Shown here in pieces: positions 9,781 through 62,906 of a DNA stretch of 64,000 nucleotides. Position 1 is the first letter of the stretch. Every line of letters starts with the position of its first letter. The translations under genes were made by a program, and so were the position numbers. The notes beneath the pieces are model-generated. The model had not been told where the DNA came from and did not search any database. It worked only from the letters and a program-made list of their open reading frames with translations. The DNA is taken from IMG/VR virus record IMGVR_UViG_3300008114_000011, one strand, 5' to 3'. Source of the stretch: a virus (lineage: Duplodnaviria > Heunggongvirae > Uroviricota > Caudoviricetes).

Positions 9781-9810
9781 AGTTTGAGTAGTCAATTAAC
9801 TACTCAAACT
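9781..9810. terminator. hairpin between convergent genes
   Basis: AGTTTGAGTAG-tcaattaa-CTACTCAAACT flanked by A-run / T-run. Confidence 0.45.
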
Positions 9811-10344
9811 AATATTATTTCCTACATAAAAAAGATAAGGAACACCACTTGGACTAGTTCCACTAACTGTCGGCGCACCATCCAAAGATGTCAATTTATT
9901 ATCTCTACAATCAAAAACATAAACCTTTTTTGGTGAACCTTCTAAAGATGTCAATTCATTTTTACTACAATCAAATCTTTCCACACCAATTTGTGGTGAT
10001 CCAACTAAAGTTGTTAATTGATTATTACTACAATTGAAATCCCCATTAATTTCTTTTGGAGCACCTTCTAAGGATGTTAATTGATTGTTACTACAATTGA
10101 AATCACCATTGACTTTATTAAACTTAACCGGTAACTTAGTTAGCTTTAAACCAGATAAATCAACATGACAATAAACATCAACAGATAAATCATCATTAAC
10201 TCTAAACCTTTTACCAATAGAGCTATCACCAATTAAATATAAATTACAAAGTCCAATCACTTTATTTTTAGCGGACTTTAACTTTTGTTCATCACTTTTT
10301 TCGAAGAAGTCAAAAAAACCTTCAAATGTTTTTAATTTTTTCAT
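9796..10344 (-). CDS. leucine-rich-repeat-like protein (~22-aa tandem repeats GDFNCSNNQLTSLEGAP) with MKKLKTFEGF N-terminus
   Basis: five tandem ~22-residue LRR-like units visible in protein and as ~66-nt DNA repeats. Confidence 0.65.
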   Translation of the reverse strand: MKKLKTFEGFFDFFEKSDEQKLKSAKNKVIGLCNLYLIGDSSIGKRFRVNDDLSVDVYCHVDLSGLKLTKLPVKFNKVNGDFNCSNNQLTSLEGAPKEINGDFNCSNNQLTTLVGSPQIGVERFDCSKNELTSLEGSPKKVYVFDCRDNKLTSLDGAPTVSGTSPSGVPYLFYVGNNISLSS

Positions 10345-10374
10345 TTCATTTATTTTTTTAAATATAATAATAAA

Positions 10375-11856: not shown

Positions 11857-11950
11857 TATTTGTTTTAGTCAGGTGGCGGAATTGGTAGACGTTATTAGAG
11901 GTAAATCCATGTAGGTAAAATCGAAAGGTTCTCATACAGGTTCGAGTCCT
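11857..11950 (+). tRNA. tRNA-like gene (long-variable-arm type; GGCGGAATTGGTAGAC D-arm, GGTTCGAGTCC T-arm)
   Basis: acceptor AGTCAGG/CCTGACT pairing, canonical D and T arms; anticodon arm not resolved by eye; TAnnTTTG box immediately upstream. Confidence 0.5.
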
Positions 11951-12125
11951 GTCCTGACTACGAGGTTCTAACTATGTGTGGTTTTGTGTATTACATAGGG
12001 TGAGGTTTAGTAAATACCATTTATTGAATAAAAAATACACGCCAGGGCGGAAATGTAACTTAATACAACTGGGTTGACCTTGATCAGGTGTTACGTGAGT
12101 TCAAATCTCAATCTGTCCACTAAAT

Positions 12126-12215
12126 AGTCAGATCGTCTAATGGTAGGACGGCTAGATGACTCAGATACTGATTCTGAAAATTTTGCTTATATAGGTTCGA
12201 ATCCTTTTCTGACTA
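12126..12215 (+). tRNA. tRNA-like gene (D-arm CGTCTAATGGTAGGACG, T-arm GGTTCGAATCC)
   Basis: acceptor AGTCAGA/TCTGACT pairing; long extra arm; anticodon not resolved. Confidence 0.45.
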
Positions 12216-12224
12216 CGAACATGG

Positions 12225-12449
12225 TTGCTAAATAATATGAAAGACGAAATTAGAAAAATCATTGAGAGTGGTAATAATACTGATGATATTGTTGATAATA
12301 TATTAGAGTTATTAAAGAATAAATCAATAGTGGTTTATGATACTCGAGATAATATTGAATGGAAAAAAAATTTAAAACATATATTATTAGATAATAAAAA
12401 GTATGTTTTATATCCGAATAGAGAAAGAATTATAATTACTTGTGTATGA
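12225..12449 (+). CDS. hypothetical small protein
   Basis: ORF directly after tRNA-like gene. Confidence 0.4.
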   Translation: MLNNMKDEIRKIIESGNNTDDIVDNILELLKNKSIVVYDTRDNIEWKKNLKHILLDNKKYVLYPNRERIIITCV

Positions 12450-12506
12450 AGGGTAACTTCATAGATGAAATTAAGTTTGTGGGTATAACAGATTAAAACC
12501 CTCGTT

Positions 12507-12672
12507 AGTCAGGTGGCGGAATATTAACATCCCCGTTCTAGTTGTAAAAATAATGTGGTTAGAATCCACTACGGGGACAATGTTAATTTGGTAGACGCAC
12601 GAGAAGTACAATCGACAAGGCGGCCCTATAAACGGGAACGAGTGTGTACAGGTTCGAGTCCTGTTCTGACTT
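12507..12672 (+). tRNA. tRNA-like gene interrupted in the D-loop by a ~66-nt inverted-repeat insertion
   Basis: GTCAGGTGGCGGAAT[insert]TTGGTAGACGC...GGTTCGAGTCCTGTTCTGACT; insert ATTAACATCCCCGT...ACGGGGACAATGTTAAT. Confidence 0.4.
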
Positions 12673-12674
12673 CT

Positions 12675-12992
12675 ATGAGATCTATTAAAAAGGTCACCGA
12701 ATTATTTTATTTGGTGAATGAAAAAAATGATTATTCCGGTGAATACGATATAGAAATATTGTCAGAGATTACAGGGGAGGATTTTGATGATGAATCTATT
12801 GGAATATTTACAATAGATTCAAACAATACAATCGATGATGATTTTATATCAATCCGTCGTAAAACGATTTCAAGTGAACCATTTTTCTCTGAGGAGAAGA
12901 CAATATTCTATGAAGAGATACATCGAATAAGTATGAACGAATATAAGACATATTTAAGAGATAAGAAGATAAGTGAATTATTAAAAAAATAA
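12675..12992 (+). CDS. hypothetical protein with variant tail (RDKKISELLKK); ORF-track start 12555 overlaps tRNA-like gene
   Basis: internal ATG at 12675 after tRNA 3' end. Confidence 0.45.
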   Translation: MRSIKKVTELFYLVNEKNDYSGEYDIEILSEITGEDFDDESIGIFTIDSNNTIDDDFISIRRKTISSEPFFSEEKTIFYEEIHRISMNEYKTYLRDKKISELLKK

Positions 12993-13062: not shown

Positions 13063-13542
13063 ATGAAAGTAATATTTTTAGACATAGATGGCGTTCTTAA
13101 CCTTTGTTACGAAGGTAGAGATGAATATGGATCACTATTTCATCCACACTTAGTAGACAATCTAAAACGATTGATTGATGAAACTGGTGCTAAGATTGTT
13201 ATAAGTAGTACTTGGCGTTTAAGTGGGTTAGAAATAATGAAAGAAATGTGGATTAAAAGAGGTTTACCAGGTGAGGTTATTGGTATAACTCCAAACTTTA
13301 TGAGACATTATGGCACAACTTTATGTAGAGGAAAAGAAATAGACGCTTATCTTAAAGAGAACAAAGATATTACGAGTTATTTAATCTTAGACGATGATAC
13401 AGATATGGAAGAACACCAACTACCTTATTTCGTAAAAACATCTGGTAATAAAGATCACGAAGATTGTGTTGATATTGGTTATGGTTTGACAAGAATCTGT
13501 ACGGATAAGGCAATAGAAATACTAAATAACTTAGAGTTATGA
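13063..13542 (+). CDS. HAD-superfamily phosphatase
   Basis: motif I FLDIDGVL near N-terminus, motif II VISSTWR; TAnnTTTG box at 13039. Confidence 0.65.
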   Translation: MKVIFLDIDGVLNLCYEGRDEYGSLFHPHLVDNLKRLIDETGAKIVISSTWRLSGLEIMKEMWIKRGLPGEVIGITPNFMRHYGTTLCRGKEIDAYLKENKDITSYLILDDDTDMEEHQLPYFVKTSGNKDHEDCVDIGYGLTRICTDKAIEILNNLEL

Positions 13543-25188: not shown

Positions 25189-25398
25189 ATGAAAGATTAC
25201 AAGAAAGGTGATGAATTCACATCTAAAAACTCAGGGACTATTTCAACAATAATAGAGATTGCATCGGAAGATGTCCTAAACTGGTACGGATTAGAAGGTC
25301 CAGCGTTCTGGATAAATGAGAATGGAAGCTCTCAATTAAGACTTTGTACCATAGAAGGCCTCAAAGAACTATTCATTATACCCGAAGAGAAAAAATAG
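25189..25398 (+). CDS. hypothetical small protein
   Basis: ORF (probable start MKDYKKGDEF). Confidence 0.4.
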   Translation: MKDYKKGDEFTSKNSGTISTIIEIASEDVLNWYGLEGPAFWINENGSSQLRLCTIEGLKELFIIPEEKK

Positions 25399-25474
25399 GT
25401 TTCTGACTTCGTGGAAAAATAGTGAACCTTCGTTAACTCAGGTACTAAACTTCGTTTAGAGTTTCTAAAGAAAC

Positions 25475-25500
25475 TACTAAAATCCGTGCGGATTTTAGTA
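25475..25500 (+). repeat. 26-nt element variant (TACTAAAATCCGTGCGGATTTTAGTA, near-perfect palindrome)
   Basis: copy 5. Confidence 0.7.
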
Positions 25501-25584
25501 TCATTAGCTTGTGATATACAGATAAAATCATTATCTTTATACTCACAGAGTGAGAGTATAAAATACTAAAACAAAATAAGAGAT

Positions 25585-26004
25585 ATGAACCTTGACACTA
25601 TAATAAAATCACAAATAATCGGATTAGAAATCGGAATAATAAACGTTATCAAAACAACCGAGTTTAACGTACACGCAATCGCAAACGAATTATCCGATAT
25701 ATTAGGTAAAGAAAATATCCAAATATTCAAAGTTGGTACCCACACAGGTATATCAATACCAGAAATCGTTAAACAATTCGATAACTTCGACTACTCTAAA
25801 CCAATCATAATCGTTACAAACAAAGACGCAATCTATAAACATATCATACCAAGAAACGGTAAAGTAATTCAATCTAAATGCCCAAAAACAGGCTTCCTAA
25901 TCCTAAACGATGTTAAATGGAAATTCACACGTTTCCAATCTACTTTCGAAGGAACAATAACTCAACTAAGAAGAGATTACCAATTAGAAACACTAATAAA
26001 TTAA
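25585..26004 (+). CDS. hypothetical protein with RRDYQLETLIN tail variant
   Basis: ORF. Confidence 0.5.
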   Translation: MNLDTIIKSQIIGLEIGIINVIKTTEFNVHAIANELSDILGKENIQIFKVGTHTGISIPEIVKQFDNFDYSKPIIIVTNKDAIYKHIIPRNGKVIQSKCPKTGFLILNDVKWKFTRFQSTFEGTITQLRRDYQLETLIN

Positions 26005-26019
26005 AAAATAGGTTAGGTG

Positions 26020-26093
26020 GGTAGCTCAACTGGAAAGAGCCTCTCATTAAGAGAGAGATTAAGGTTCGAATCCTGTCCCTTCTGACCTATACT
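26020..26093 (+). tRNA. tRNA-like element, possibly degenerate or partial (GTAGCTCAACTGG D-arm, GGTTCGAATCC T-arm, candidate TAA anticodon)
   Basis: D-arm, anticodon hairpin CTCTC-ATTAAGA-GAGAG and T-arm are recognisable but the acceptor stem pairs poorly. Confidence 0.35.
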
Positions 26094-26108
26094 AAACTTC
26101 AGAGAAGA

Positions 26109-26134
26109 TACTAAAATCCGCACGTTTTTTAGTA
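26109..26134 (+). repeat. 26-nt element, orientation A
   Basis: copy 6, directly after the tRNA-like element. Confidence 0.8.
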
Positions 26135-26348
26135 TCTTCTTTAGTTCTGATTGATCCGAGCCGCCCGAAATCACCGATTAAAATTGTTAAAAACCAGGTA
26201 AAAACCCAGTGGATTTTTTACTGAAAAATGACCCTCTGGAAACGTAAGCAGGTCAAGGCTTTCCGAGAGGTGTGTATATACAAATTGGTGCTGAAAATAA
26301 GGCTACTGGTAGAGAAAATGAAATGGCGATAGAGTTTACACAAAAATA

Positions 26349-26374
26349 TACTAAAAAACGACCGGATTTTAGTA
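26349..26374 (-). repeat. 26-nt element variant (TACTAAAAAACGACCGGATTTTAGTA)
   Basis: copy 7. Confidence 0.65.
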
Positions 26375-26389
26375 TGTTGAAAAATAAGG

Positions 26390-26415
26390 TACTAAAAAGT
26401 GTGCGGAATTTAGTA
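26390..26415 (-). repeat. 26-nt element variant (TACTAAAAAGTGTGCGGAATTTAGTA)
   Basis: copy 8. Confidence 0.6.
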
Positions 26416-26571
26416 TTAACTAAAAGTGAAGTATGACTTTGAAATCGTTCCATTCAAATTAAATCAAAACTAATTCAAATTCTATAAACGTAAAATTGTT
26501 CACATTACACTATAATTTATTTTTATTATTCGTATAGAGTTCTTATATTTATTAAATCAAAACGAAAATAT

Positions 26572-29969: not shown

Positions 29970-30770
29970 ATGAAAAAGACAAATTATTACGAAATTTGTA
30001 ATCAAAAATTGAAGTATTTAAACTATTCAGATAGGACTATCAAGTCCTATCTTTATTATATTAATCAATTTTTAGAAAATACTAAAATACCACCAACCAG
30101 ATTAACAGCAACAGATTTCCAACAATATCTCAATAATTACAATTTTACCTCCACCTCACAACAAAATCAAGTCATAAACTCAATAAGATTCCTATACAAA
30201 GAATCACTTAATAAAAAATATGATAAGGTTGATTTTAAAAGACCTAGATCTGAAAAGAAACTACCAAAAGTAATTGATGGCGATTATATCAAATCTAAAC
30301 TTTCTAAAATAGAAAACCTTAAGCATAAAACTATACTTACTTTAACCTATTCAGTTGGTTTAAGAGTTTCCGAAATAATAAATCTTAAAATAGAAGATAT
30401 TGACTCCAAAAGAATGATTATTCATATTAAAAATGCTAAAGGTAAAAAAGATAGAATTGTACCACTTTCAGAAAACGTACAAAATCTAATAAAAATATAT
30501 TCAGAAAAATATACACCAAAAGAATATCTTTTTAATGGTCAATCCACAAACAAATATTCAATACAATCCTGTCAAAATATCTATAAAAAATATATTGATG
30601 AAAATTCATCTATACATACCCTCAGACACTCAGCCTTTACCAACCTCTTAGAAAATGGAACAGATCTAAGAATAATACAGAAAATAGCAGGTCACTCATC
30701 CACCAAAACAACAGAGATATATACACACGTTTCTAATCAACTTTTAAATAAAGTTAATCTACCAATTTAA
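29970..30770 (+). CDS. tyrosine recombinase/integrase (XerC/D-like)
   Basis: C-terminal catalytic block HTLRHSAFTNLLENGTDLRIIQKIAGHSSTKTTEIYTHV (R..H-x-x-R..Y). Confidence 0.85.
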   Translation: MKKTNYYEICNQKLKYLNYSDRTIKSYLYYINQFLENTKIPPTRLTATDFQQYLNNYNFTSTSQQNQVINSIRFLYKESLNKKYDKVDFKRPRSEKKLPKVIDGDYIKSKLSKIENLKHKTILTLTYSVGLRVSEIINLKIEDIDSKRMIIHIKNAKGKKDRIVPLSENVQNLIKIYSEKYTPKEYLFNGQSTNKYSIQSCQNIYKKYIDENSSIHTLRHSAFTNLLENGTDLRIIQKIAGHSSTKTTEIYTHVSNQLLNKVNLPI

Positions 30771-30794: not shown

Positions 30795-31256
30795 ATGATT
30801 ATATTTGTATATAATCACACACATAATATGATAAAGTTTGTTAAGAAGTCGAGTTCGGGGTCTACAAAAGAGGTGGATTTAATATTATCTGATGTTAGTA
30901 ATTGTAAATCATTAGCATCTTCTATCTTATTAAGAAAATATTTAATGGAGATGGATGTGGATTATATAGAGAAGATGGATTTGATTAATAAACGTATTGA
31001 GTTTAGTAGAAGTTATTTAGAGAGTGTTTTATCTCGTGATGGTGATATTAAGTGTACTTATTGTGGTAAGGGAGATTTGGTTATTGAGTATGATGGGATG
31101 CGTGTCAAAGAAAGTATAAAGGCTACGATTGATCATATCGTTCCTGTATCAAGAGGAGGAGGTAGGTTTGATGTTAGTAATATAACTCCATGTTGTGGTG
31201 AGTGTAATGGTAAGAAGGGTAATAAGTCATTAGATGATTTTCTAAAGTCGATTTAA
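30795..31256 (+). CDS. HNH endonuclease
   Basis: CTYCGK...IDHIVPVSRGGGRFDVSNITPCCGECNGKKGNK. Confidence 0.7.
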   Translation: MIIFVYNHTHNMIKFVKKSSSGSTKEVDLILSDVSNCKSLASSILLRKYLMEMDVDYIEKMDLINKRIEFSRSYLESVLSRDGDIKCTYCGKGDLVIEYDGMRVKESIKATIDHIVPVSRGGGRFDVSNITPCCGECNGKKGNKSLDDFLKSI

Positions 31257-33172: not shown

Positions 33173-33889
33173 ATGAGAAATAATTTAGTAGAGATATTTC
33201 ACGATACTCAAATCAAGTCCGTGAAGTTTAATGATGGTGTTACAACACAACATTCAAATAATGAGATAGTTGGACCTTATTTATCAGTTTATAAAGGTAA
33301 TGTTAAGGTCGTTAATTTAGATACGGTATCTGCTCTTGTAGAGTTATCTAAGTCTGGTAAAACTTGTGGCTTGAATATGGCTTCGTATAAGAAACCGGGT
33401 GGTGGAGTTCGTAATGGAGCCAGAGCTCAAGAAGAATGTTTATTTAGATGTTCTAACTTAATCAATTCAATTGTAGAAGATTTTTATCCATTAGAAGATG
33501 GTACTTGTCTTTATACATCAGATGCTACATTCTTTAAAGATAAGGATTATAATGATATGGAACCGGTTGAGTGTGATATTATTACGATAGCTGCTATAAA
33601 CTTAAACAGTCGTAGTTATGATAAAGAGACTTATGAAGAGATTACACTCCAAAAGATAAGATTGATGCTTACTATCCCATCTAAACATGGTGTTGAGAAC
33701 TTGGTTTTGGGAGCTTTTGGTTGTGGTGTTTTTGGGAATGATCCCCATGTGATGTCAGAATTATTTAGAAAGGTTTTAGTTGAAGAAGGTTATTCATCTT
33801 TATATAAAGAGGTTGTTTTTGCTGTTATAAACGATCATAATTCTGTTGGTAATAATTATAGTGTGTTTTCTGATAAATTCTACTCTTAA
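33173..33889 (+). CDS. bacterial-type poly(ADP-ribose) glycohydrolase-like macrodomain protein (DUF2263 family)
   Basis: PARG signature GGG-x7-QEE (KPGGGVRNGARAQEE) plus GAFGCGVFGNDP. Confidence 0.65.
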   Translation: MRNNLVEIFHDTQIKSVKFNDGVTTQHSNNEIVGPYLSVYKGNVKVVNLDTVSALVELSKSGKTCGLNMASYKKPGGGVRNGARAQEECLFRCSNLINSIVEDFYPLEDGTCLYTSDATFFKDKDYNDMEPVECDIITIAAINLNSRSYDKETYEEITLQKIRLMLTIPSKHGVENLVLGAFGCGVFGNDPHVMSELFRKVLVEEGYSSLYKEVVFAVINDHNSVGNNYSVFSDKFYS

Positions 33890-46404: not shown

Positions 46405-47193
46405 ATGGGAAAACATTATTTATATAAACATATAAGAAATGATAGTAATATCATTTTCTATATTGGTATAGGGACAAAAAATAAATCTGATATAACTTAT
46501 AATAAGTATAGTAGGGCTTTTAATAAAAAAAGGAGAAATAAACATTGGTTAAATACAGTTTCTTTATTGAATGATGATTATTCAATTGAGATAGTATGTG
46601 AGACCGATGATTATGAATATGTGAAAAGTCTAGAAAAAAATCTGATTTTATTTTATGGTAGAAAGGATCTAGGTTTAGGTAATTTAGTAAATATGACAGA
46701 TGGTGGTGATGGTCAAATAAAAAGAGTTTGGAGTGAAGAGTCTAGGAAGAAGGCATCTAAATCACACATTGGTAAAGTAATTGATGGTGAGTGGAAGAAA
46801 AATTTAATAAAAGCTAGATTTGGAAATAAATCACATTCTGGTCGAACTTTTTCAGATGAACATAGAAAAAAAATATCAGAAGCAGGTAAGGGAAAAATAC
46901 CTTGGAATAAGAATAGAGAATTATCCAATGATGAGATTGAAAAAATAAAAAAGGGTATAGAAGAAAATAAAAAAATTTGTTATATTTGTAATGTTGAGTG
47001 TGACTCTGCTAATTATAATAGATGGCATGGTGATAAATGTGAGATGGGATCTATTTTAGATAGGGTTGATGAGATAAAGGATTTATTGTATAATAAAGTT
47101 CCTTTACTTAGGATTAGTAGAGTTTTAGGAATAAAGTATAAATTATTGAGAAGATTAAAAGAGTCAGTTTTATTTAAAGAAGAATTATTATGA
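46405..47193 (+). CDS. GIY-YIG homing endonuclease with NUMOD3 repeats (I-TevI-like)
   Basis: YLYKHI..IIFYIGIG..R..NKHW GIY-YIG core; repeated SEESRKKASKSHIGK / SDEHRKKISEAGKGK. Confidence 0.8.
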   Translation: MGKHYLYKHIRNDSNIIFYIGIGTKNKSDITYNKYSRAFNKKRRNKHWLNTVSLLNDDYSIEIVCETDDYEYVKSLEKNLILFYGRKDLGLGNLVNMTDGGDGQIKRVWSEESRKKASKSHIGKVIDGEWKKNLIKARFGNKSHSGRTFSDEHRKKISEAGKGKIPWNKNRELSNDEIEKIKKGIEENKKICYICNVECDSANYNRWHGDKCEMGSILDRVDEIKDLLYNKVPLLRISRVLGIKYKLLRRLKESVLFKEELL

Positions 47194-47963
47194 AATATTT
47201 AAAAAAGAAATATCCGGATGGTAGCTTTTATGTTGAAGTAGAGGATTTTAGTGAACCTATAATAACCGAAAGAATAAATTCATATGAGGACCTTTTTTTC
47301 ATAAAATCCATCAAAGAGGTTTGTGATTTTAATGGAATTAAAGATGTTGAGTTATTTATACCATGTATGTTTCAACAGCAACATGACCGTAGATTTTTTG
47401 ATAATCAATCATTTGAACTAAAGATAGTTTGTGACTTTATCAACTCATGTAATTTTAGTAAAGTTTATGTTTTCCATCCACATTCTGATTCCACTCAAAT
47501 GGGATTGAATAATATTAGAGTTGTTGATAATTCTAAATTTATATCAAGTGTTTTAAGTAGAATTGATTCTAATCCAATATTATTTTCAACAGATGCTGGT
47601 TCATTTAAATGGATAAATAAATTAGTTGATAAAATAGGATTTAATGGTGATGTTTATTGTGCTAGTAAGTCTAGAGATTTAAAAACACATGATTTGAAGC
47701 AAGTTATTGATTGTTCTGATTTTGGTGGTAGAGATATATTAGTATTGGATGATTTATGTGTAAAGGGTGGTACATTTATAGGTCTATTGAATATGTTAAA
47801 GGAGAGAAATGTTGGTAAGATATACTTAGCAGTTAGTCATATGACTATTCAAGATCCAAATACAAGTCTTGAGTGTTATGATAAGATATTTACTACTAAT
47901 AGTAAGTATGACTATTATGTTCTAAATAATTTAGAATTGATTGATTATAAAAGTATTATATAA
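47190..47963 (+). CDS. ribose-phosphate pyrophosphokinase (Prs)-like phosphoribosyltransferase-fold enzyme; possibly a phage Adps-type ADPR pyrophosphokinase
   Basis: FHPHSD (cf. Prs MDLHADQ), PRPP-binding loop ILVLDDLCVKGGTF, LAVSHMT. Confidence 0.65.
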   Translation: MKYLKKKYPDGSFYVEVEDFSEPIITERINSYEDLFFIKSIKEVCDFNGIKDVELFIPCMFQQQHDRRFFDNQSFELKIVCDFINSCNFSKVYVFHPHSDSTQMGLNNIRVVDNSKFISSVLSRIDSNPILFSTDAGSFKWINKLVDKIGFNGDVYCASKSRDLKTHDLKQVIDCSDFGGRDILVLDDLCVKGGTFIGLLNMLKERNVGKIYLAVSHMTIQDPNTSLECYDKIFTTNSKYDYYVLNNLELIDYKSII

Positions 47964-47968
47964 AAGAT

Positions 47969-48826
47969 ATGAAAAACTTTAAAATAGGAGGTGTTCCCGA
48001 ACACTTCAACTTACCTTGGCGTTTAGCCATTGAAGAAGGAAGATTAAATGATTTAGATGTAAATCTACACTGGTCTGATATGACTGGTGGTACTGGTCAA
48101 ATGATTAAAGGTTTACAAGCAGGTTCAATTGACATCGCAGTTCTTCTTACTGAAGGAATTACAAAAGCAATTTTAGATGGTTTGGATGCCAAAATATTAA
48201 CAGTTTATGTTAAAAGTCCATTACGATGGGGTATTCACGTACCTTTTAATTCAGAAATGAAAACTTCTGATGATATCAAAGGTAAAACATTTGCTATCTC
48301 AAGAGAAGGTTCTGGTTCACACTTAATGGCTTATGTAAACTCATTTCAAAGAGGTTGGAATACCGATGATTTAAAGTTTGAAGTTGTTGGTGATGTTTAT
48401 GGTGGTTTATGGGCTTTAGAGAATGGGCAGTCTGATGTTTTCTTATGGGAAAAGTTTACAACTTATCCATTTGTTAAAGCAGAGAAATGTAAATGTATCG
48501 GTGAAGTTGTAACACCTTGGCCCTGTTTCGTAGTTGCTGTTAGAAACGAGATCTATGAACAACACAAAGATTTGTTAAGAGAAGTTATGAAAGTCGTTGG
48601 TGGTGTCGCAAATGAGATTAAAAACCCATCATTACATGATTTCTATTCAAATGAAATTTCTTGGAGATATAACTTAGAAAAAGATCAAGCTTCTACTTGG
48701 TTGAATGAAGTAGAATGGAACTACACTGGTGATAATGATGTTAATGATTATGAATTAGTAGTTGATTATCTACAAAAAATATCTCTTATTGAAGAAAATA
48801 AAGACTGGAAATCTAAATTATTTTAG
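47969..48826 (+). CDS. NMT1/THI5-like (periplasmic-binding-fold) protein, tentative
   Basis: FKIGGVPEHFNLPW N-terminus resembles the NMT1/ThiY/THI5 family; weak. Confidence 0.35.
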   Translation: MKNFKIGGVPEHFNLPWRLAIEEGRLNDLDVNLHWSDMTGGTGQMIKGLQAGSIDIAVLLTEGITKAILDGLDAKILTVYVKSPLRWGIHVPFNSEMKTSDDIKGKTFAISREGSGSHLMAYVNSFQRGWNTDDLKFEVVGDVYGGLWALENGQSDVFLWEKFTTYPFVKAEKCKCIGEVVTPWPCFVVAVRNEIYEQHKDLLREVMKVVGGVANEIKNPSLHDFYSNEISWRYNLEKDQASTWLNEVEWNYTGDNDVNDYELVVDYLQKISLIEENKDWKSKLF

Positions 48827-48862
48827 AGGTAATAGGTTCTTATATATATAAGTATAAAAGAA

Positions 48863-49846
48863 GTGATACTTATGTTAGAAGAATTTATAAAAAAATCGAT
48901 AGTTAAATTTGGTAATAAATTTGATTATAGTAAGTTTAATTATGTGAATGCTAAAACTAAATCTATAATCATATGCCCAGTACATAAAGATTTTTTTCAA
49001 ACACCTGATAAGCATTTACGTTCAAAATATGGATGTAAATTATGTTGGGAAATTGAAAAAAAGAAAATAAAAAGAGATTATGTAAAGGGTCCAAATATCA
49101 TTTCAAAAGATGAGTTCTTGGGTAGATGTTATGAGAAGTTTGGTGATAAATTCAAATACGATTTATCAAACTACAATGGGTTTGTTGGTGATTATATAAA
49201 AATAACTTGTTCAGAACATGGTGATTTTTATACAAAACCGAATATACATTTATTAAGTAATAACACCTATGGGTGTAAATTATGTGCTAATGATAATAGA
49301 GTACTCAATAAAACACAAACCTATGATGATGTTATAGAAAAATTATCAAATATTTATAATGATAAATATATTTATCCTGAATATAATAGAGATACTTATA
49401 TTAACAAGAGGTCGAAAATAGATATAATTTGTCCGGATCATGGGCTATTTGTTAAGAGTGTTCAAAAACACCAAAGCGGTCAATATTGTTTTGAGTGTAA
49501 AATTAAGAATATGGTTTTTAATAATATTTTAGTTGGTGGTTACACTGAGAAATTATTTGAAGATAAACCAGAATTAAAGGATAAAAAATCTAAATTATAT
49601 TATTTGAGAATAAATAATGGTGATTATTATAAAATAGGAATAACAACAGTTTCGGTTGAAAGTAGAATAAAGTCATTGAAGAGTAAATCTAAAGGTTTTA
49701 TAAAAGATGTTGAGATTTTATTTGAAAAGGAAATGTCTTTATATGAATCATATATCATGGAGAGTAAAATATTAAATGATAATATAGATAGTAGAGTTTA
49801 TAAAAAATGGAGTACTGAAATTTTCAACAAAAATGTTTTGGAATAA
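48863..49846 (+). CDS. homing-endonuclease-like protein: three zinc-ribbon modules plus C-terminal T5orf172/GIY-YIG-like domain
   Basis: three CP-xHG-x-F..H..GC-xxC repeats; KLYYLRINNGDYYKIGITT..R C-domain. Confidence 0.5.
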   Translation: MILMLEEFIKKSIVKFGNKFDYSKFNYVNAKTKSIIICPVHKDFFQTPDKHLRSKYGCKLCWEIEKKKIKRDYVKGPNIISKDEFLGRCYEKFGDKFKYDLSNYNGFVGDYIKITCSEHGDFYTKPNIHLLSNNTYGCKLCANDNRVLNKTQTYDDVIEKLSNIYNDKYIYPEYNRDTYINKRSKIDIICPDHGLFVKSVQKHQSGQYCFECKIKNMVFNNILVGGYTEKLFEDKPELKDKKSKLYYLRINNGDYYKIGITTVSVESRIKSLKSKSKGFIKDVEILFEKEMSLYESYIMESKILNDNIDSRVYKKWSTEIFNKNVLE

Positions 49847-49881
49847 TAGAATAATTATTATCTTTATAAAAAATAAAAACT

Positions 49882-51462
49882 ATGAACTTTTTAGAAATTT
49901 ATTATACCGATGTGTATAAAACAGGACACAAACCAATGCTACCAGTGGGTAGTGTTTTGATGCAATCAAATTTTACACCAAGGAGTGGTAAATATAGCAA
50001 TTGTCCAAATAATGGTAAAATTGTTTCGTTTGGTCAACAAATGATGGTGAGAAAAATGAAACAAGATTGGGATGTTAACTTTTTTCAAAGACCAATTGAA
50101 GAAATCGATCAATTTGGGAAGGATTTAACAGATATGTTAATGCTGAGTGATCCTTTTGATGTTACTCACTTCAAAGAACTACATAAATTGGGATATCTTC
50201 CGATTGAGTTTAGAGCAATCACTGAAGGTGAGAGAATTCCGTATAAAATACCATTATCGACTATCGTTAATACTAAACCTTTAAATGGTCAAGTTTTTGA
50301 CTGGATAGTTAATTACTTAGAAACTATTAATTCTGCTGAATCTTGGCAAGCACCAACTTCAGCGACGCTATCATTCGCATTAAGAGAGTTATCAACAAAG
50401 TGGATCACAAAAACAGATCCGGAGAGTTTGTGGTTTGTTGACTATCAAAATCATGATTTCTCAATGAGAGGTATGGGTGGTAAATCAGCTATTGTTAATA
50501 GTGGTTTAGGATTTGCTACTTGTTCGAGAGGTTCAGATACACTACCTGTTATACCAGCTGCTAGAATGTATTATGATGAAAAAGATGTTTGTATCAACTC
50601 TGTTATCGCATCTGAACATGCTATTATGTGTTCATTGACTGGATTTTTCATTAAGACTAAAGATGGTTCTTGGGATAAGGTTGGTAACTTTGAAGTTGAG
50701 ACATTTAGGTATTTATTAAGAACTTTTCCAACTGGAATATTGTCATTAGTATCTGATACTTGGGATTTATGGAGAGTTATTACGGAGTACTGTCAAATAT
50801 TAAAAGATGAAATTTTAGCAAGAGATGGCAAACTTGTTATCCGTCCTGACTCTGGTGATCCAGTAGATATTATTTGTGGTAGCATAACTCCAGATATGTC
50901 TTCTTATAATGAAAGATACAAACAACCTCAATATAAAGGTGTTATCGAGTTATTATGGGATATCTTTGGTGGTACTGAAACATCAACCGGATATAAAAAA
51001 TTAGACTCACACATTGGTGCTATCTATGGTGACTCTATTAACTATAAGAGAGCTGAGAGTATTTATGAAAGATTATCAGCTAAAGGATTTGCAACAACAA
51101 ACATCGTTCTCGGTGTGGGATCCTATTCACTTCAGATGGTAACACGCGATACACATGGTATGGCTCAAAAAGCAACCTACATCGAAATTGAAGTTGATGG
51201 TGATGTTGAAGGTATCAACATCTTTAAAGACCCTATCACTGATGATGGTACTAAAAAATCAGCAACTGGATTACTAAAAGTAGTTAAAGTTGATGGTGAG
51301 TTTACATTAATTGATAAATGTACTTGGGATGATGTTAACTCGGAAGATAATGAGCTGAAAGTTATCTTCAAAGATGGTAAGTTCTATAACGAAACGACTT
51401 TGACCATCATACGTGGGAAGTTAGAGGATCTTGTTTCTAAAGAACAACCTGAATTAGTTTAA
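49882..51462 (+). CDS. nadV: nicotinamide phosphoribosyltransferase (NAMPT/NadV) family
   Basis: TDVYKTGH, IRPDSGDPVD and NIFKDPITDDGTKKSATGLL match NAMPT blocks. Confidence 0.85.
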   Translation: MNFLEIYYTDVYKTGHKPMLPVGSVLMQSNFTPRSGKYSNCPNNGKIVSFGQQMMVRKMKQDWDVNFFQRPIEEIDQFGKDLTDMLMLSDPFDVTHFKELHKLGYLPIEFRAITEGERIPYKIPLSTIVNTKPLNGQVFDWIVNYLETINSAESWQAPTSATLSFALRELSTKWITKTDPESLWFVDYQNHDFSMRGMGGKSAIVNSGLGFATCSRGSDTLPVIPAARMYYDEKDVCINSVIASEHAIMCSLTGFFIKTKDGSWDKVGNFEVETFRYLLRTFPTGILSLVSDTWDLWRVITEYCQILKDEILARDGKLVIRPDSGDPVDIICGSITPDMSSYNERYKQPQYKGVIELLWDIFGGTETSTGYKKLDSHIGAIYGDSINYKRAESIYERLSAKGFATTNIVLGVGSYSLQMVTRDTHGMAQKATYIEIEVDGDVEGINIFKDPITDDGTKKSATGLLKVVKVDGEFTLIDKCTWDDVNSEDNELKVIFKDGKFYNETTLTIIRGKLEDLVSKEQPELV

Positions 51463-53753: not shown

Positions 53754-54587
53754 ATGGAAAAGGGATATATTTATAAAATAATTTCACCAACTAACAGGAT
53801 TTATATTGGTAAAACTTTTAATTTGGAAAAGAGAGTAAGATCTTATAAAGGTTTATGGTGTAAAAAACAAAGAGTTTTGTATAAATCATTAGTTAAATAT
53901 GGTTGGGATAAACATAGTTTTGAGATACTATTTGAAGATTTTTGTAGTGAGGAATATTTATCTGAGTTGGAGACAAAGTATATAATTGAATATAATAGTT
54001 TTCGAAGATACAACTATAAATTTGGAATGAATTTAACTCTTGGTGGTGAAGGATCTTGTGGATTAAAACATACGGATAAAACTAAAAAAATGATATCCGA
54101 AACTAAGAAAAAGGCTAAAAGAACGGAGAAAGAGATTTTAGCAAGTGAAAAAAGAAGAGGGACTAAGGTTTATAAAAGTGAAGAGTGGATTAAAAATAAC
54201 GCAGAGAGTATAAAAAAACCAATATTGCAATATGATTTGGATGGTAATTTTATCAAAGAATGGAAAAGTGCTAAAGATATTGAATTGGAATTGGGATTTT
54301 CTAGGAAAAACATTTCCTGTAATGTTAGATATAAAAGTAATAGTGCATTTAACTTTATATGGATTTTTAAAAATGCCGATCTTAAAATAGATGATATTCT
54401 AATAAGGAGAAAAAGAGAAAGAAAAAAACCAACTAATAGTATTAAGGTTTTAGATATTGAATGTAATATTGTCTATGATAGTATAATGGATGTAGTTAAA
54501 AATACTAACATGACATATGCTAAAGTTTATCGAGTTATATACAGTAATGATGAGAATAAAAAGTATATTATATATGAAGAGAAATAA
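53754..54587 (+). CDS. GIY-YIG homing endonuclease with NUMOD-type DNA-binding repeats
   Basis: GYIYKI..IYIGKT..R..Y core; HTDKTKKMISETKKKAK repeat. Confidence 0.75.
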   Translation: MEKGYIYKIISPTNRIYIGKTFNLEKRVRSYKGLWCKKQRVLYKSLVKYGWDKHSFEILFEDFCSEEYLSELETKYIIEYNSFRRYNYKFGMNLTLGGEGSCGLKHTDKTKKMISETKKKAKRTEKEILASEKRRGTKVYKSEEWIKNNAESIKKPILQYDLDGNFIKEWKSAKDIELELGFSRKNISCNVRYKSNSAFNFIWIFKNADLKIDDILIRRKRERKKPTNSIKVLDIECNIVYDSIMDVVKNTNMTYAKVYRVIYSNDENKKYIIYEEK

Positions 54588-56024: not shown

Positions 56025-57749
56025 ATGAAAAGAATATTATTTTTACTAACACTATTATTATCATTTAGTTCATTAGCAACTAATTATTATATTAGTTCAA
56101 CCGGAAACAATACAAACAATGGAACATCATCTATTACACCAAAATTAACATTAGCAAACGTTTTCAGCACCTATAATTTAGGTTCTAATGATACTATTTT
56201 CGTTGAAGCAGGAACTTATTCTGAGACAGGTATTACTGTTGGTACTGATGATGAAGGTTTTGTAATTTCTGGTGCGGCTTTATCATCTGGTGTACCTACA
56301 TCTATTTTTGATGCAGGTAGTACCGCAAGATGGTTATTGTTAAATAACACAAATAATGATAATATCACAATCACTAAATTAATTATAAAGGATCATAAAA
56401 ATTCTGATGGAGGTGATCCAGGAGGTGGTGGAGCAATTAAAATAATTGCTGGATGTACAGGATTTAAAGCAACTTATTGTCAGTTTGATAATTGTGATAC
56501 AAGAACTGCCTCTTTACATCACCGAGGTGGTGTTATTTATTCTGCTGAGGGAATAACCATCGATTATTGTACTTTCAAAAATTGTAATGCTGAATATTAT
56601 GGTGGTGCTATTTCAATAGAATTATCACCAACATCATCATCATCAATAAAACATTCAATTTTTTATTCAAATACCGCTACTAATTACGGAGGTGCTATAT
56701 TCTTTGGTGTTGGATCTACCTCTACTCTAACATTAGAAAACTGTTTATTTTATGAAAATAATACATCATCAGGAGAGGCTGTTATTGTTGCTATGAATAC
56801 ATATAGTACATTAAATATTATGAACTGTACTATAACTGCTAATGGTAATGCTTCTGTTGGAACTGGAGGTGTTTTGGCTTTATCATCAGCTAAAATAAAT
56901 TTAATAAATACAATTATTTATAATAATTTAGGTAATACTTTCAATGATGTTTATAATAATGCCGCTACCGTTAACATGACAAATTGTTGTTATGGAAATT
57001 CAGCTGAGATAAAATCAGCTACATCAAATACATCACCGTTAATATCAAATCCACTATTCACAAATAGTGCTAGTGATGATTATACACTTTCTGGTACATC
57101 ACCTTGTATAGATTGGGGAACAACAACCGGAGCACCAACTGATGATTTGAGACATTATAGTCGTATTGGTAATCCAGATGTTGGATGTTATGAATCAAAT
57201 GGTATTGCTTTACCAATTGAGTTGATTTACTTTAAAGTTAAATTTGAAGATGGTGTTGTTAAATTAAGATGGTCAACAGCATCAGAACACAATAATGATT
57301 ATTTCACAATTGAAAAGTCAAAAGATGGTTTAGATTATGATATAGTTACAACTCTACCAGGTGCTGGTAATTCAACTCAAAGAATAAACTATCAAGCAAT
57401 TGATCGAAATATTGAAACTGGAATAACTTACTATCGATTAAAACAAACTGATTATAATGGTGATTATAAAAGAACAGATTGGGAGTCTATATTAATTCAA
57501 TTAAATATTGAGAACTTAACGGTTTATCCAAATCCAATTACAAATGAAATAAATGTTTCTTTACATTCATCTTTTAGTAAGGTTGAAGACTTATTGATAT
57601 ATGATTTAACCGGTAAACAATTTTATAAAAAATCATTAGATTTACAATTAGGTGATAATTATTTTGATGTAGAGTTACCACAACTTTCTAAAGGTCTTTA
57701 CATACTACAAATAGGTGATAAGAAACTTAAACTTGAATATAATGATTAA
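56025..57749 (+). CDS. secreted right-handed beta-helix (pectin-lyase-fold) protein with T9SS C-terminal sorting domain
   Basis: signal peptide; Gly/Asn/Thr-rich beta-helix repeats; C-terminal ~80 aa match Por secretion-system CTD (..LTVYPNPITNEINVS..LYILQIGDKKLKLEY). Confidence 0.7.
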   Translation: MKRILFLLTLLLSFSSLATNYYISSTGNNTNNGTSSITPKLTLANVFSTYNLGSNDTIFVEAGTYSETGITVGTDDEGFVISGAALSSGVPTSIFDAGSTARWLLLNNTNNDNITITKLIIKDHKNSDGGDPGGGGAIKIIAGCTGFKATYCQFDNCDTRTASLHHRGGVIYSAEGITIDYCTFKNCNAEYYGGAISIELSPTSSSSIKHSIFYSNTATNYGGAIFFGVGSTSTLTLENCLFYENNTSSGEAVIVAMNTYSTLNIMNCTITANGNASVGTGGVLALSSAKINLINTIIYNNLGNTFNDVYNNAATVNMTNCCYGNSAEIKSATSNTSPLISNPLFTNSASDDYTLSGTSPCIDWGTTTGAPTDDLRHYSRIGNPDVGCYESNGIALPIELIYFKVKFEDGVVKLRWSTASEHNNDYFTIEKSKDGLDYDIVTTLPGAGNSTQRINYQAIDRNIETGITYYRLKQTDYNGDYKRTDWESILIQLNIENLTVYPNPITNEINVSLHSSFSKVEDLLIYDLTGKQFYKKSLDLQLGDNYFDVELPQLSKGLYILQIGDKKLKLEYND

Positions 57750-58476
57750 ACAAAAATTAGACGAATACTTAGAGTTTGATTCATCTTTGTTATTTGGTGA
57801 TGATACTTTCATCACTAATGAATTAAAAGATCGTGGAATAATTTATAATAAGTTAGTTAGAGTTTTTGGTGGAGCTTTAAGAGATATTATAGCCGGTCAA
57901 AAAATCAATGATGTGGATATATTAATTGGTACTAAATCAATGAATTTTGTTGATAAAGTATTAGTTGAGAATGGATATATTTATCATGAAAATTTAGCAC
58001 CTAAAGATCTATCATCTGTTTATGATATGAATATGGTTATATCTGAACCCTATTCTTATGTTAAAGGAACTAAAGTGGTTCAACTTATAAGACCAAGAGT
58101 TATGTCTGTTGAAAGACCATCCGATGTTACTCAAGATTTATACACGCAAACGTTTATTGATTTGATTGCTAATGTTGATATTAGTTGTTGTGGTATATCT
58201 TATGATGGTAAAAACTTATATCAAAACTATCCAGGTGCTATTTCACATGCTAAACATAGAAAGTTTCTTGTAAATAACTTAGCTAAAATGTATAATCAAA
58301 AAAGAATTAGTTCTAGAAGATGGAAGCTGATAAATAGAGGTTGGGAAGAGTTGAATGGAGTTGCTGATTATAGAGATTTTAAAATAGATGCTATTTTTGA
58401 TATCGAAAATTTTGAATATATAGATGAATCAAAAACCATAAATAAAAAGAAGAATAAAGAGTTCGATTTGTGGTAA
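57742..58476 (+). CDS. nucleotidyltransferase, CCA-adding/poly(A) polymerase head-domain family
   Basis: VFGGALRDIIAGQKINDVDILIG matches GGxVRDxLLG..DxDI (ORF-track start is GTG at 57715). Confidence 0.5.
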   Translation: MIKQKLDEYLEFDSSLLFGDDTFITNELKDRGIIYNKLVRVFGGALRDIIAGQKINDVDILIGTKSMNFVDKVLVENGYIYHENLAPKDLSSVYDMNMVISEPYSYVKGTKVVQLIRPRVMSVERPSDVTQDLYTQTFIDLIANVDISCCGISYDGKNLYQNYPGAISHAKHRKFLVNNLAKMYNQKRISSRRWKLINRGWEELNGVADYRDFKIDAIFDIENFEYIDESKTINKKKNKEFDLW

Positions 58477-58499: not shown

Positions 58500-59033
58500 A
58501 TGAGAAAACCCTTTAAGAGAGTAGAACCAAAAAGAAAACACAAAATTAATTTAGAAATAACATCAAGTGATGTTAGATTGATTGGTAATGGAGAACCAAT
58601 CGTTATTTCTAGAAATGAAGCTATTAGAATGGCTGAAGCAGAGGAAAAAGATTTGATTATGATTAATGAAAATCAAACTCCACCTATTGTTAGAATTGAG
58701 GACTACAACAAATTTCTTTATAATCAAGAAAAGATTGAGAAAGAGAAAAAGAAAAATGCTGTTAAATCCTCTTTAAAAGAAATACAATTATCGGTTAATA
58801 TATCAGATCATGATTTAGAAACTAAATCTAAAAAAGGTAGAGAGTTTTTAAGTGACGGTGATAAAGTAAAAGTTGTTATCTCTTTAAAAGGTAGAGAGAA
58901 AGCATCTCCAGAAAGAGGTGAGTTAGTTATGTTAAAATTTGCTCAATCCGTTGAAGAGTTTGGTACACCAGAGGCACTTCCTAAATTAGAATCCGGAAAG
59001 TGGTTAATGATTTTGAAATGTAAAAAGAAATAA
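58500..59033 (+). CDS. infC: translation initiation factor IF-3 homolog
   Basis: near full-length collinear match to bacterial IF3: VRLIG..GE..IS..EA...AEE...DL+.I.....PP+.RI.DY.KFLY...K...K.K......KEI......D..D...K......FL..G.KVK....+GRE.......++.......F........K.EG+..+M+L. Confidence 0.85.
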   Translation: MRKPFKRVEPKRKHKINLEITSSDVRLIGNGEPIVISRNEAIRMAEAEEKDLIMINENQTPPIVRIEDYNKFLYNQEKIEKEKKKNAVKSSLKEIQLSVNISDHDLETKSKKGREFLSDGDKVKVVISLKGREKASPERGELVMLKFAQSVEEFGTPEALPKLESGKWLMILKCKKK

Positions 59034-62294: not shown

Positions 62295-62906
62295 TTATCT
62301 TTTAATTCTTTTAATAGCACCTTTTATAACAGATTTATGATCAAATGCCATATCAACAATAGTTTCACCACTATAACTAACATCAATCCAATCACATTCA
62401 TCAGCATCATCAGCCGCGGATGTTTCAGGTATATCACTTAAAATAACTGAGAAAGCATAAGAAATACAATTCTTATTTCTTGGATCTCTCCACGGTTCAT
62501 TGAATACATCAATAAATCTCAAATATCTTTTAGGTACTTTTAAACTTGTTTCTTCTTCCAACTCACGAATAGCAGCATCTATTGGTTCTTCACCTTCGTC
62601 AATGTTCCCACCAGGACAAGCCCACTTGCCTTTAAATGGATCTTTATTTCTTAGAATTGCCAACATCTTATAATTTGAGCCAGTATCAACTAAAATAACT
62701 AAATCGACACAAGACATACCCGTATCAACTATCATATCACCATTCAATCTAAAAACATATGTATAACCTTTCTTTATTTGATTTATAGAATTATTTACAA
62801 AATTTCCAGAAGTTGTATAAACTTTACGATCTTTTATATCTAGAACCTTAACAGGTCCAAACCAATCACTCGAATTAAATTGGTTATAAGTTTTAATTTT
62901 TAACAT
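62295..62906 (-). CDS. Nudix hydrolase (ADP-ribose pyrophosphatase-like)
   Basis: Nudix box GGNIDEGEEPIDAAIRELEEETSL. Confidence 0.75.
   Translation of the reverse strand: MLKIKTYNQFNSSDWFGPVKVLDIKDRKVYTTSGNFVNNSINQIKKGYTYVFRLNGDMIVDTGMSCVDLVILVDTGSNYKMLAILRNKDPFKGKWACPGGNIDEGEEPIDAAIRELEEETSLKVPKRYLRFIDVFNEPWRDPRNKNCISYAFSVILSDIPETSAADDADECDWIDVSYSGETIVDMAFDHKSVIKGAIKRIKR

Follow-up and report, generated by a model that had tools for sequence, protein, structure and literature searches.

RNA C and RNA D of bacteriophage T4 (species 1 and 2; genes rnaC and rnaD) are stable RNAs of the T4 transfer RNA (tRNA) cluster, and their role is still unknown (PMC3014915, PMC9697503). In this study, we report four tRNA-shaped elements, E1 to E4, located in a 64,000-nucleotide (nt) sequence of a virus of the Caudoviricetes (IMG/VR record IMGVR_UViG_3300008114_000011), the whole of which is referred to here as the window. 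We read them, with moderate confidence, as genes for stable non-decoding RNAs built on a tRNA scaffold, with other RNA, here called cargo, in the place of the anticodon arm. T4 RNA C is their nearest characterised analogue. Its gene belongs to a phage tRNA cluster and is oriented like the tRNA genes. When the covariance model of the frame described below (R1) was applied to T4 rnaC (locus L253, 70908-71046), it scored 27.7 bits and placed the frame in the 3' 92 nt, with a 46-nt 5' extension left outside. These 3' two-thirds comprise a 7-base-pair (bp) acceptor stem, a T arm (CCGGG-UUCGAAU-CCCGG), a D-like loop and a middle that is not an anticodon arm. The resemblance is structural, with no sequence relation beyond generic tRNA features. 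Besides the 5' extension, T4 differs in having two such RNAs rather than a family with interchangeable cargos, and no D-loop insert is known in them.

Transfer-messenger RNA (tmRNA) also joins a tRNA-like acceptor and T domain to a large insert on the anticodon side, is charged by a synthetase that ignores the anticodon, and is encoded in the same phage RNA islands as relatives of E1-E4 (L244 and L089). The elements differ from it in lacking a tag reading frame, a pseudoknot series and the G3-U70 alanine identity (their position 3-70 is U-A), and E1-E3 have a D stem while tmRNA does not; the Rfam tmRNA model (RF00023) found no match in the window. An engineered tRNA scaffold, which Ponchon and Dardel are said to have described in 2007, has the same architecture as E1-E3 and their family: its anticodon arm is reportedly swapped for an arbitrary structured RNA, and the tRNA body reportedly secures processing by tRNA-maturation enzymes and protection from nucleases. 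That scaffold is a laboratory design, whereas the family would be a natural, evolved one, whose processing and stability are presumed and which has the D loop as a second insertion site.

YrlA-type Y RNAs of bacteria and phages are non-coding RNAs whose tRNA-like domain has T and D arms with tertiary contacts and is modified by tRNA enzymes; in M. smegmatis, its cleavage by RNase P and the addition of CCA have been reported (PMC4201824). They are circularly permuted, with ends on the anticodon side in a Ro-binding stem and an acceptor closed by a loop, whereas the ends of E1-E4 lie in the acceptor stem. In addition, their genes adjoin Ro60 (TROVE), a domain that was not found among the 44 open reading frames (ORFs) of the window scanned with Pfam, and the Rfam YrlA model gave no match. 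For the insert carried by E3, archaeal tRNA introns at non-canonical positions offer a likeness: they are extra structured segments located outside the anticodon loop, the D arm included (PMC3241643). Such introns are excised at a bulge-helix-bulge by the archaeal splicing endonuclease to yield a decoding tRNA, whereas E3 has no such motif at the junctions and no anticodon arm to restore, and its setting is a bacterial phage. Non-decoding tRNA-like units, viral or cellular, are also represented by the TMERs of murine gammaherpesvirus 68 (MHV68) and by mascRNA, which recruit RNase P and RNase Z to release linked small RNAs. These are eukaryotic, and their functional small RNA is carried on the downstream side of the tRNA-like unit, not inside it.

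Organization of the element cluster

The four elements share one orientation and lie within 806 nt of the window (11867-12672, + strand):

11867-11960, + strand: E1, tRNA-framed RNA gene of 94 nt; acceptor stem 11867-11873 / 11953-11959, tRNA-Leu-type D arm 11876-11892, non-tRNA cargo 11893-11935, T arm 11936-11952, discriminator A at 11960, CCA not encoded
12045-12119, + strand: E4, divergent tRNA-like frame of 75 nt; acceptor stem GGGCGGA (12045-12051) / TCTGTCC (12112-12118), 7 bp including two G-U; T hairpin TGAG-TTCAAAT-CTCA, directly abutted by the acceptor stem; discriminator A
12126-12215, + strand: E2, tRNA-framed RNA gene of 90 nt; acceptor stem AGTCAGA/TCTGACT, D arm CGTCT-AATGGTA-GGACG (12134-12150), long interrupted arm 12151-12185 replacing the anticodon arm, with terminus UCAGA-UACUGAU-UCUGA, T arm 12191-12207, discriminator A
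12507-12672, + strand: E3, tRNA-framed RNA gene of 166 nt; acceptor stem 12507-12513 / 12665-12671 (G7-U66), D arm split by an insert, cargo 12599-12647, T arm 12648-12664, discriminator T at 12672
12523-12588, + strand: structured RNA module, inserted into the E3 D loop (positions 16/17)

A strict scan, which demanded a T loop TTCRANY closed by G53-C61, at least four of the five T-stem pairs and a perfect, abutting 7-bp acceptor stem, returned E1-E4 and nothing else on either strand, while block-wise dinucleotide shuffles give an expectation of 0.17 per window. The cluster is real, far beyond chance. A previous sequence-only reading of this DNA had already proposed a cluster of tRNA-like genes here; it placed E2 and E3 correctly and E1 10 nt too low. 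The start GTCAGGTGGCGGAATTGGTAGACG that it assigned to three elements is found in E1 and E3, the corresponding 5' part of E2 being AGTCAGATCGTCTAATGGTAGGACG, and the different D arm of E2 had escaped it. The common 3' end that it gave, GGTTCGA(G/A)TCC...CTGACT, is present in all three of E1-E3, where it forms the block (C/T)AGGTTCGA(G/A)TCC...CTGAC (repeat family D1). For the segment 12030-12125 it had found no acceptor stem, and the 7-bp pairing GGGCGGA/TCTGTCC, which defines E4, supplies one.

With respect to tRNA features, all four elements have the 7-bp acceptor stem and a TΨC-type T arm. E1, E2 and E3 also have a D arm with G18 G19, together with U8, A14, the R15-Y48 pair (A15-U48) and the elbow nucleotides U54 U55 C56 and A58. 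E4 lacks an anticodon arm as well as any recognisable D arm (G18 G19 are absent), and its interior is a 5-7-bp stem that bears two small hairpins; it showed no Rfam match at E<=10, no R1 match and no exact IMG/VR match of its 3' frame, and it must be considered the most uncertain of E1-E4. The T stems of E2 (AUAGG/CCUUU) and E4 are weak, with 3-4 bp. The frame-constrained fold of E2 equals its unconstrained minimum free energy (MFE) structure, at -21.7 kcal/mol, and that of E3, which combines the frame, the D-loop module and an irregular cargo, reaches -41.5 kcal/mol vs. an MFE of -41.7 kcal/mol.

An anticodon stem of 5 bp with a 7-nt loop carrying U33 and R37 was not found in any of E1-E4; the candidate loop of E2 (UACUGAU) has an A at position 33, and its arm is about twice the normal length. 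ARAGORN called none of the elements a tRNA and found no tmRNA in the window. The Rfam tRNA model (RF00005) scored above its gathering cut-off of 29 bits on E1 (35.2 bits) and E2 (40.3 bits) and left E3 and E4 unmatched. These local alignments cover the acceptor, D and T arms only and skip the position of the anticodon arm (27 nt in E1 and 32 nt in E2). None of E1-E4 is a decoding tRNA: what had been taken for anticodons that could not be resolved by eye is the replacement of the whole arm by unrelated RNA.

In the window, small ORFs on the same strand alternate with the elements. One ORF has its start codon at 12675, 3 nt past E3, and for the ORF between E2 and E3 no IMG/VR homologue was found.

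The viral frame family

The 16-mer AGTCAGGTGGCGGAAT, common to the starts of E1 and E3, occurs in at least 120 IMG/VR viral contigs, and in nearly all of the contigs listed a 3' frame, ...(T)ACAGGTTCGAATCCTGTCCTGACTAC, follows 40-250 nt past it. The family frame comprises the acceptor AGTCAGG/CCTGACT, A73, a tRNA-Leu-type D arm and the T arm ACAGG-TTCGAAT-CCTGT. E1 fits it exactly, while E3 bears the exact 5' 16-mer and the 3' frame, with G7-U66, a G in the T loop and T73 as deviations; E2 is a variant and E4 lies outside the family frame. Judged by these matches, E1 and E3 are members of a large viral family with a near-constant frame and a hypervariable middle. Among the matches listed, 94 unique elements carried 88 distinct cargos of about 25 to 130 nt, and minimal frames of 67-70 nt also exist. 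In 596 gigabases of prokaryotic genomes, nearly all matches to the 16-mer were chance matches in coding DNA and about eight were true elements, all of them on contigs of metagenome-assembled genomes; since the prokaryotic matches are almost all due to chance, the family is essentially viral.

The covariance model R1 describes 15 base pairs of the frame and was built from 48 viral members, E1 being in the seed. In the window it scored 83.5 bits on E1 (partly by construction), 45.9 on E2 and 24.7 on an element at 26015 treated below. On E3 it gave 18.8 bits for the 3' part only, the D-loop insert breaking the alignment, and E4 was not matched. In the collection, R1 gave 203 matches in 100 loci. 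Some of these are diverged copies that lack the 16-mer, and single contigs carry arrays with as many as 9-10. Among 125 distinct sequences, 98.9% of the pair cells of the frame were standard pairs, compared with 31-42% in slid controls. Double-sided changes were present in 14 of the 15 frame pairs (62 such cells, vs. 6.4 in shuffles), and the acceptor was found replaced as a whole stem (AGCAAGG/CCTTGCT, AACAGAG/CTCTGTT and GGTCAGG/CCTGACC). On this covariation, the frame structure is under selection at the RNA level. In the family, the nucleotides that form the core and elbow of a tRNA vary little or not at all.

The D arm UGGCGGAAUUGGUAGACGC is that of ordinary phage and bacterial tRNA-Leu, and BLAST searches with the 5' half matched annotated phage tRNA-Leu genes; the joined halves of the frame matched ordinary tRNAs only. 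The truly constant part is the acceptor stem plus the T arm; some array members have other, non-Leu D arms. Very few array members have a credible anticodon arm, as the one at L055 13031-13101 (Lys-UUU, Rfam 66 bits), and by simple criteria only two of 154 frame elements, those with U33, R37 and a 5-bp anticodon stem, could decode. Because these few same-frame members are credible tRNAs, the frame descends from real phage tRNA genes, and it is now mostly put to another use.

Conservation of the cargos

The same cargo, at 84-100% identity, was found in contigs in which both 250-nt flanks were at background identity. From these comparisons, it is the element, and not its neighbourhood, that behaves as the unit inherited or transferred. 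The cargo named F1 was traced to 35 contigs. In its 21 distinct sequences, 20 of the 27 predicted pairs showed compensatory changes, among them pairs of an 8-bp helix beginning directly behind the D arm and of an inner hairpin with wholesale replacement of its stem, and the unpaired stretches ACCAUAAAGAGAG and GGUGGUAUAAAU are fixed. Taken as a set, the cargos have somewhat more stable folds than shuffled sequences (mean z = -0.72, p = 1e-8).

Extra T-arm-like hairpins were observed in many cargos, which, like the lack of a common motif, speaks against a single shared function. Some cargos include a second complete T-arm-like hairpin, e.g. GGTCGGTTCGAGTCCGAT, giving "double-elbow" elements (L077 13264-13356, L018 2390-2481, L040 3721-3808 and L066 9413-9581).

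The D-loop insert of E3

Compared with E1, E3 has 66 extra nt exactly between GGCGGAAT and TGGTAGACGC, an insertion that the sequence-only reading had noticed and located well. The arms of the insert are ATTAACAT-CCCCGT and ACGGGG-ACA-ATGTTAAT. Folded alone, as that reading had advised, it reaches -18.2 kcal/mol (z = -2.9), and a second version of the module gives z = -3.8. The predicted shape begins with a basal stem, followed after a 3-nt bulge by the stem CCCCGU/ACGGGG, which leads into a three-way junction. Of the hairpins of this junction, the second is T-loop-like (GUGG-UUAGAAU-CCAC). Rfam showed no match to the insert.

The module core, GTGGTTAGAATCCACTACGGGG, was found in 13 IMG/VR contigs (L089 and 12 further loci, of which one is a duplicate), including at least two pairs of near-duplicates, in modules of 65-70 nt. 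In 12 of the 13 it occupies the identical D-loop site; the remaining copy (L241) is free-standing, between a tRNA-type 3' end and the next tRNA. Inside frames, the module accompanies at least eight distinct cargos on the anticodon side, and it occurs together with either of two acceptor stems. Its basal stem exists in compensatory variants (ATTAACAU/AUGUUAAU, GUUAACA/UGUUAAC, GUUUAAAC/GUUUAAAC and AAUACGAA/UUCGUAUU), while the inner part is almost invariant. In addition, other family members (L039, L080, L348 and L364) have different hairpins at the same D-loop site, and several relatives with the module have an ATG within 2-3 nt on the 3' side.

A degenerate tRNA, a small mobile insertion and a D-loop intron had been offered as explanations of the insert, and all three were rejected. 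The recurrent site and the compensatory changes of the basal stem in a module conserved across 13 contigs, with varied cargos, indicate that it is neither a degenerate tRNA nor a miniature inverted-repeat transposon; for the latter, a target-site duplication is absent despite the inverted ends, and there is only a single copy in 64 kb. The geometry of the junctions likewise rules out an archaeal-type intron, since inspection of the folds showed no bulge-helix-bulge there: the two junctions are at the foot of an uninterrupted helix, and the only bulge of the insert (ACA) is one-sided and 8 bp into it. The E3 insert is best seen as a selected RNA module, probably a second cargo site that projects from the outer D loop.

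Two loci with a D-loop-module element (L244 2090-3056 and L089 5724-6218) have a GOLLD RNA (311.9 bits) and a tmRNA beside large tRNA arrays.

Genomic context and processing signals

Context was assessed for 154 elements in 93 loci. Position -1 was T in 84% of them, N73 was A in 86% and position 74 was C in 95%, while CCA was encoded in only 4 of the 154. All 70 elements whose locus has a separate tRNA share the strand of that tRNA, 45 of them within 500 nt, and the loci with several elements were co-oriented without exception (29 of 29). The same islands carry large tRNA sets, tmRNA and GOLLD RNA, and in many loci the elements stand back-to-back with tRNAs, with no ORFs between them. A search of 20 array loci with Rfam gave tRNA, tmRNA and GOLLD only, and no known family for the cargos. 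When the ORFs of 128 loci and of part of the window were clustered all against all, no protein family was present in more than 16 of these 129 sequences. With no protein family regularly in their vicinity, the elements are likely to be processed by host enzymes.

RNase P, the 3' nuclease and the CCA-adding enzyme require of their substrates a 7-bp acceptor stacked on the T arm, an intact elbow and a U at -1. Because the elements have these known requirements, it is probable that they are processed by tRNA enzymes. E1-E4 would be co-transcribed with the surrounding + strand genes. Host RNase P would then cut the 5' end, at a 7-bp acceptor preceded by U at -1, and the 3' end would be trimmed at N73 by the 3' nuclease before the CCA-adding enzyme adds CCA.

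Proposed function of the elements and alternative explanations

Our preferred explanation, to which we give a little more than even weight, is that E1-E4 are genes for non-decoding tRNA-shaped RNAs that are excised by the tRNA-maturation enzymes and persist as L-shaped RNAs. In this reading the frame would be a tRNA scaffold of natural origin, while the functional parts would be the cargo and the D-loop module. The L-shaped frame would protect the RNA, and the scaffold would in this way deliver stable small RNAs whose activity lies in the cargo. On a wider scale, we tentatively put forward, at somewhat less than an even chance, that a large, undescribed class of modular RNAs exists in uncultured phages, chiefly those of lakes: a tRNA-derived scaffold for expression and stability, with two insertion sites (the position of the anticodon arm and the D loop at 16/17), into which well over a hundred structured modules are plugged and between phages exchanged as cassettes. 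The modules, for instance the E3 D-loop module and F1, would then be new classes of functional RNA.

It must be noted that several observations weigh against this proposal. The frame-constrained fold of E1 is much weaker than its unconstrained MFE structure (-9.1 vs. -20.5 kcal/mol), and the fold of E1 is no better than those of shuffles. The exact 16-mer used as seed biases the search, so that it overstates the constancy of the frame and samples one sub-lineage, and a few genuine tRNAs may be among the sequences of alignment A6, which was made by fitting to the model. The cargos share no motif beyond the end of the D arm, and a crude test gave no enrichment over shuffles of a closing helix at the position of the anticodon stem. 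Finally, the collections searched contain no relatives of the E1, E2 and E4 cargos or of the E2 and E4 frames, the exact searches of IMG/VR giving no match to the E2 frame, the E4 frame or the E1 cargo. The longest complementary runs between the cargos of E1-E4 and the window are of 10-11 nt, which is the level of chance, and no antisense targets were recognised in it. As neither relatives nor antisense targets were found, the individual significance of the cargos of the window is argued by analogy with the family.

The frames might instead be mere processing punctuation, that is, RNase P and RNase Z signals that cut polycistronic transcripts and set the ends of mRNAs, as in mitochondrial tRNA punctuation, with the cargo as drifting filler. 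The alternation of elements with small same-strand ORFs, the ORF start just after E3 and the ATG close downstream of several D-loop-module relatives would all be expected of such signals, as would a frame far more conserved than the cargo and cargos with no common motif and lengths from about 25 to 130 nt. We nevertheless think it unlikely: identical or near-identical cargos persist in unrelated contexts, F1 combines extensive compensatory change with invariant single-stranded motifs, many loci are back-to-back arrays with tRNAs and no intervening ORFs, and, minimal frames being available, long cargos and a D-loop module would be a needless load in compact genomes. Nor is it probable that the frame itself is the active part, acting at its acceptor end through leucyl-tRNA synthetase (LeuRS), EF-Tu or host anti-phage toxins as a decoy, a sponge or an amino-acid donor. 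E. coli LeuRS recognises A73, A15-U48 and G18 G19 and does not read the anticodon. These identity nucleotides are kept in the elements, the D arm UGGCGGAAUUGGUAGACGC equals that of tRNA-Leu, the frame is conserved at the sequence level with C74 in 95%, and a gene for an RNA-repair-type HAD phosphatase lies 390 nt downstream of E3. Such mimicry leaves unexplained, however, the conservation and covariation of the cargos and the occurrence of non-Leu D arms in members whose acceptor and T arm are unchanged; as a decoy, an element would face competition from the entire host tRNA pool, no protein family co-occurs consistently with the elements, and the HAD gene is unlinked to them in 80 related metagenome loci.

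Decay of tRNA genes after duplication in phage tRNA arrays, leaving pseudogenes with no function of their own, would agree with the existence of credible tRNAs on the same frame (L055), with the decayed appearance of the element at 26015-26084 and with the folds of E1 and E4, neither of which is better than shuffles. Neutral decay would, however, erode all arms alike, whereas in the family the frame stays paired and the middle is replaced; neither inserts as long as 130 nt nor a D-loop module that recurs are products of decay, and the cargos are conserved across unrelated contexts. As an explanation of the family this reading is disfavoured, and we consider it very improbable. For E3 in particular, a DNA-level event, be it a miniature inverted-repeat transposon or an excisable intron, would account for the clean gain of 66 nt relative to E1, for the terminal inverted repeats (8 + 6 bp) and for a homologue in L241 that can stand alone outside a tRNA frame. 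The chance of this seems smallest of all, because the module is found at exactly the same D-loop position in 12 contigs and in the window, at which other family members have different hairpins, its basal stem shows the compensatory changes of RNA-level selection, and Rfam found no group I or group II intron in the region, in addition to the lack of a target-site duplication, of further copies in 64 kb and of a bulge-helix-bulge.

Returning to the scaffold that carries functional cargo, Rfam 15 has no family for the elements or the modules, and literature searches of incomplete coverage gave no description of such a family. It is therefore apparently undescribed, as kin to the tRNA-like stable RNAs of phages and not as something categorically new. 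Standard annotation does not reveal it, given that ARAGORN misses the elements and Rfam labels them as weak or undetermined tRNAs at 31-50 bits; as a consequence, the "tRNA counts" of phages in viromes would be inflated by RNAs unable to decode. If the proposal is right, phages long ago reached a design that biotechnology uses for recombinant RNA expression, and the family would provide a catalogue of more than 100 compact, evolution-tested RNA modules with built-in boundaries, easy to express and test, as well as a broad comparative setting for T4 RNA C and RNA D, a puzzle now 50 years old.

tRNA-like sites near 25-26 kb

Beside E1-E4, no bona fide tRNA was found in the window, the closest being a borderline one:

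25390-25411, + strand: fragment, AAAAAATAGGTT joined directly to TCTGACTTCG (direct repeat D6)
26015-26084, + strand: borderline tRNA; ARAGORN Leu(taa), Rfam 30.3 bits (cut-off 29), R1 24.7 bits

The D arm of the 26015 element is good, as is its anticodon arm (CUCUC-AUUAAGA-GAGAG, anticodon UAA), but the T and acceptor stems are defective. In its 3' half it is similar to the family frame, from which it differs by the lack of one base and the presence of three additional ones, and it is possibly a decayed relative. The 12-mer AAAAAATAGGTT occurs twice (25390-25411 and 26003-26085), once joined to TCTGAC and once split from TCTGAC by the 26015 element, and the pair looks like the "empty" and "filled" versions of one site, the 25390-25411 fragment resembling the 26015 element minus its interior. 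Two fragments resembling the 3' end of a tRNA had been indicated here by the sequence-only reading: the first, TTCTGACTTCG, is present at 25401-25411, while the second reads TTCTGACC at 26077-26084 and is the 3' end of the borderline tRNA. Their description as near the integrase is loose, the tyrosine recombinase gene being about 4 kb away.

Four copies of a palindromic element of about 34 nt, with the core ACTAAAATCCGTGCGGATTTTAGTAT, lie within 1 kb around the borderline tRNA (25469-25502, 26103-26136, 26343-26376 and 26384-26417). They may be terminators or a regulatory repeat.

The window and its neighbouring genes

The window is AT-rich, with a guanine plus cytosine (G+C) content of 25-34%, and small ORFs are densely packed in it. 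Stop-codon recoding was considered as a reason for suppressor-type tRNAs and dropped, as the ORF statistics are consistent with the standard code. A protein with a type-IX-secretion sorting domain is encoded in the window, from which we infer that it is probably part of a large phage of a Bacteroidota host. Among cultured phages, megablast found no close relative and sensitive blastn no homologue at the DNA level. Genes for a recombinase and for proteins of homing-endonuclease type or with intein domains were annotated as follows:

29970-30770: tyrosine recombinase gene
30795-31256: HNH ORF, homing-endonuclease-type
46405-47193: NUMOD3 ORF, homing-endonuclease-type
53754-54587: GIY-YIG + NUMOD1 ORF, homing-endonuclease-type
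59137-61158, - strand: two adjoining ORFs with intein splicing and LAGLIDADG domains

The HAD phosphatase gene mentioned above (HAD_SAK_2, 13063-13542, + strand, 96.9 bits) is of the "Swiss Army Knife" RNA-repair type. Copies that are 70-88% identical occur in lake metagenomes with otherwise unrelated flanks, an extreme case of single-gene mosaicism. Its linkage to the elements was dropped, the 80 metagenome loci with the gene being mostly without frame matches.

A full-length IF-3 gene, unusual as a translation gene in a phage, lies at 58500-59033 (+ strand; Pfam IF3_N and IF3_C, NCBIfam infC equivalog 142.5 bits). The ORF at 57715-58476 (+ strand) has a weak match to the PolyA_pol head domain of the CCA-adding enzyme family (20.2 bits, cut-off 23), which neither NCBIfam nor a PDB sequence search confirmed; a CCA-adding enzyme here would bear on tRNA-like genes that lack CCA.

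A set of genes of NAD/ADP-ribose metabolism is located at 47190-51462, 62295-62906 and 33173-33889, and its members include NAPRTase, NUDIX, a microbial-type PARG and a phosphoribosyltransferase domain (under the Pfam cut-off).

A near-identical metagenome contig (L254, 99.3%) shows zero differences from the window inside the element cluster and is hence uninformative about it. It lacks about 580 nt at 9781-10361, including a leucine-rich-repeat-like (LRR-like) ORF (9796-10344), which represents a strain-level indel.

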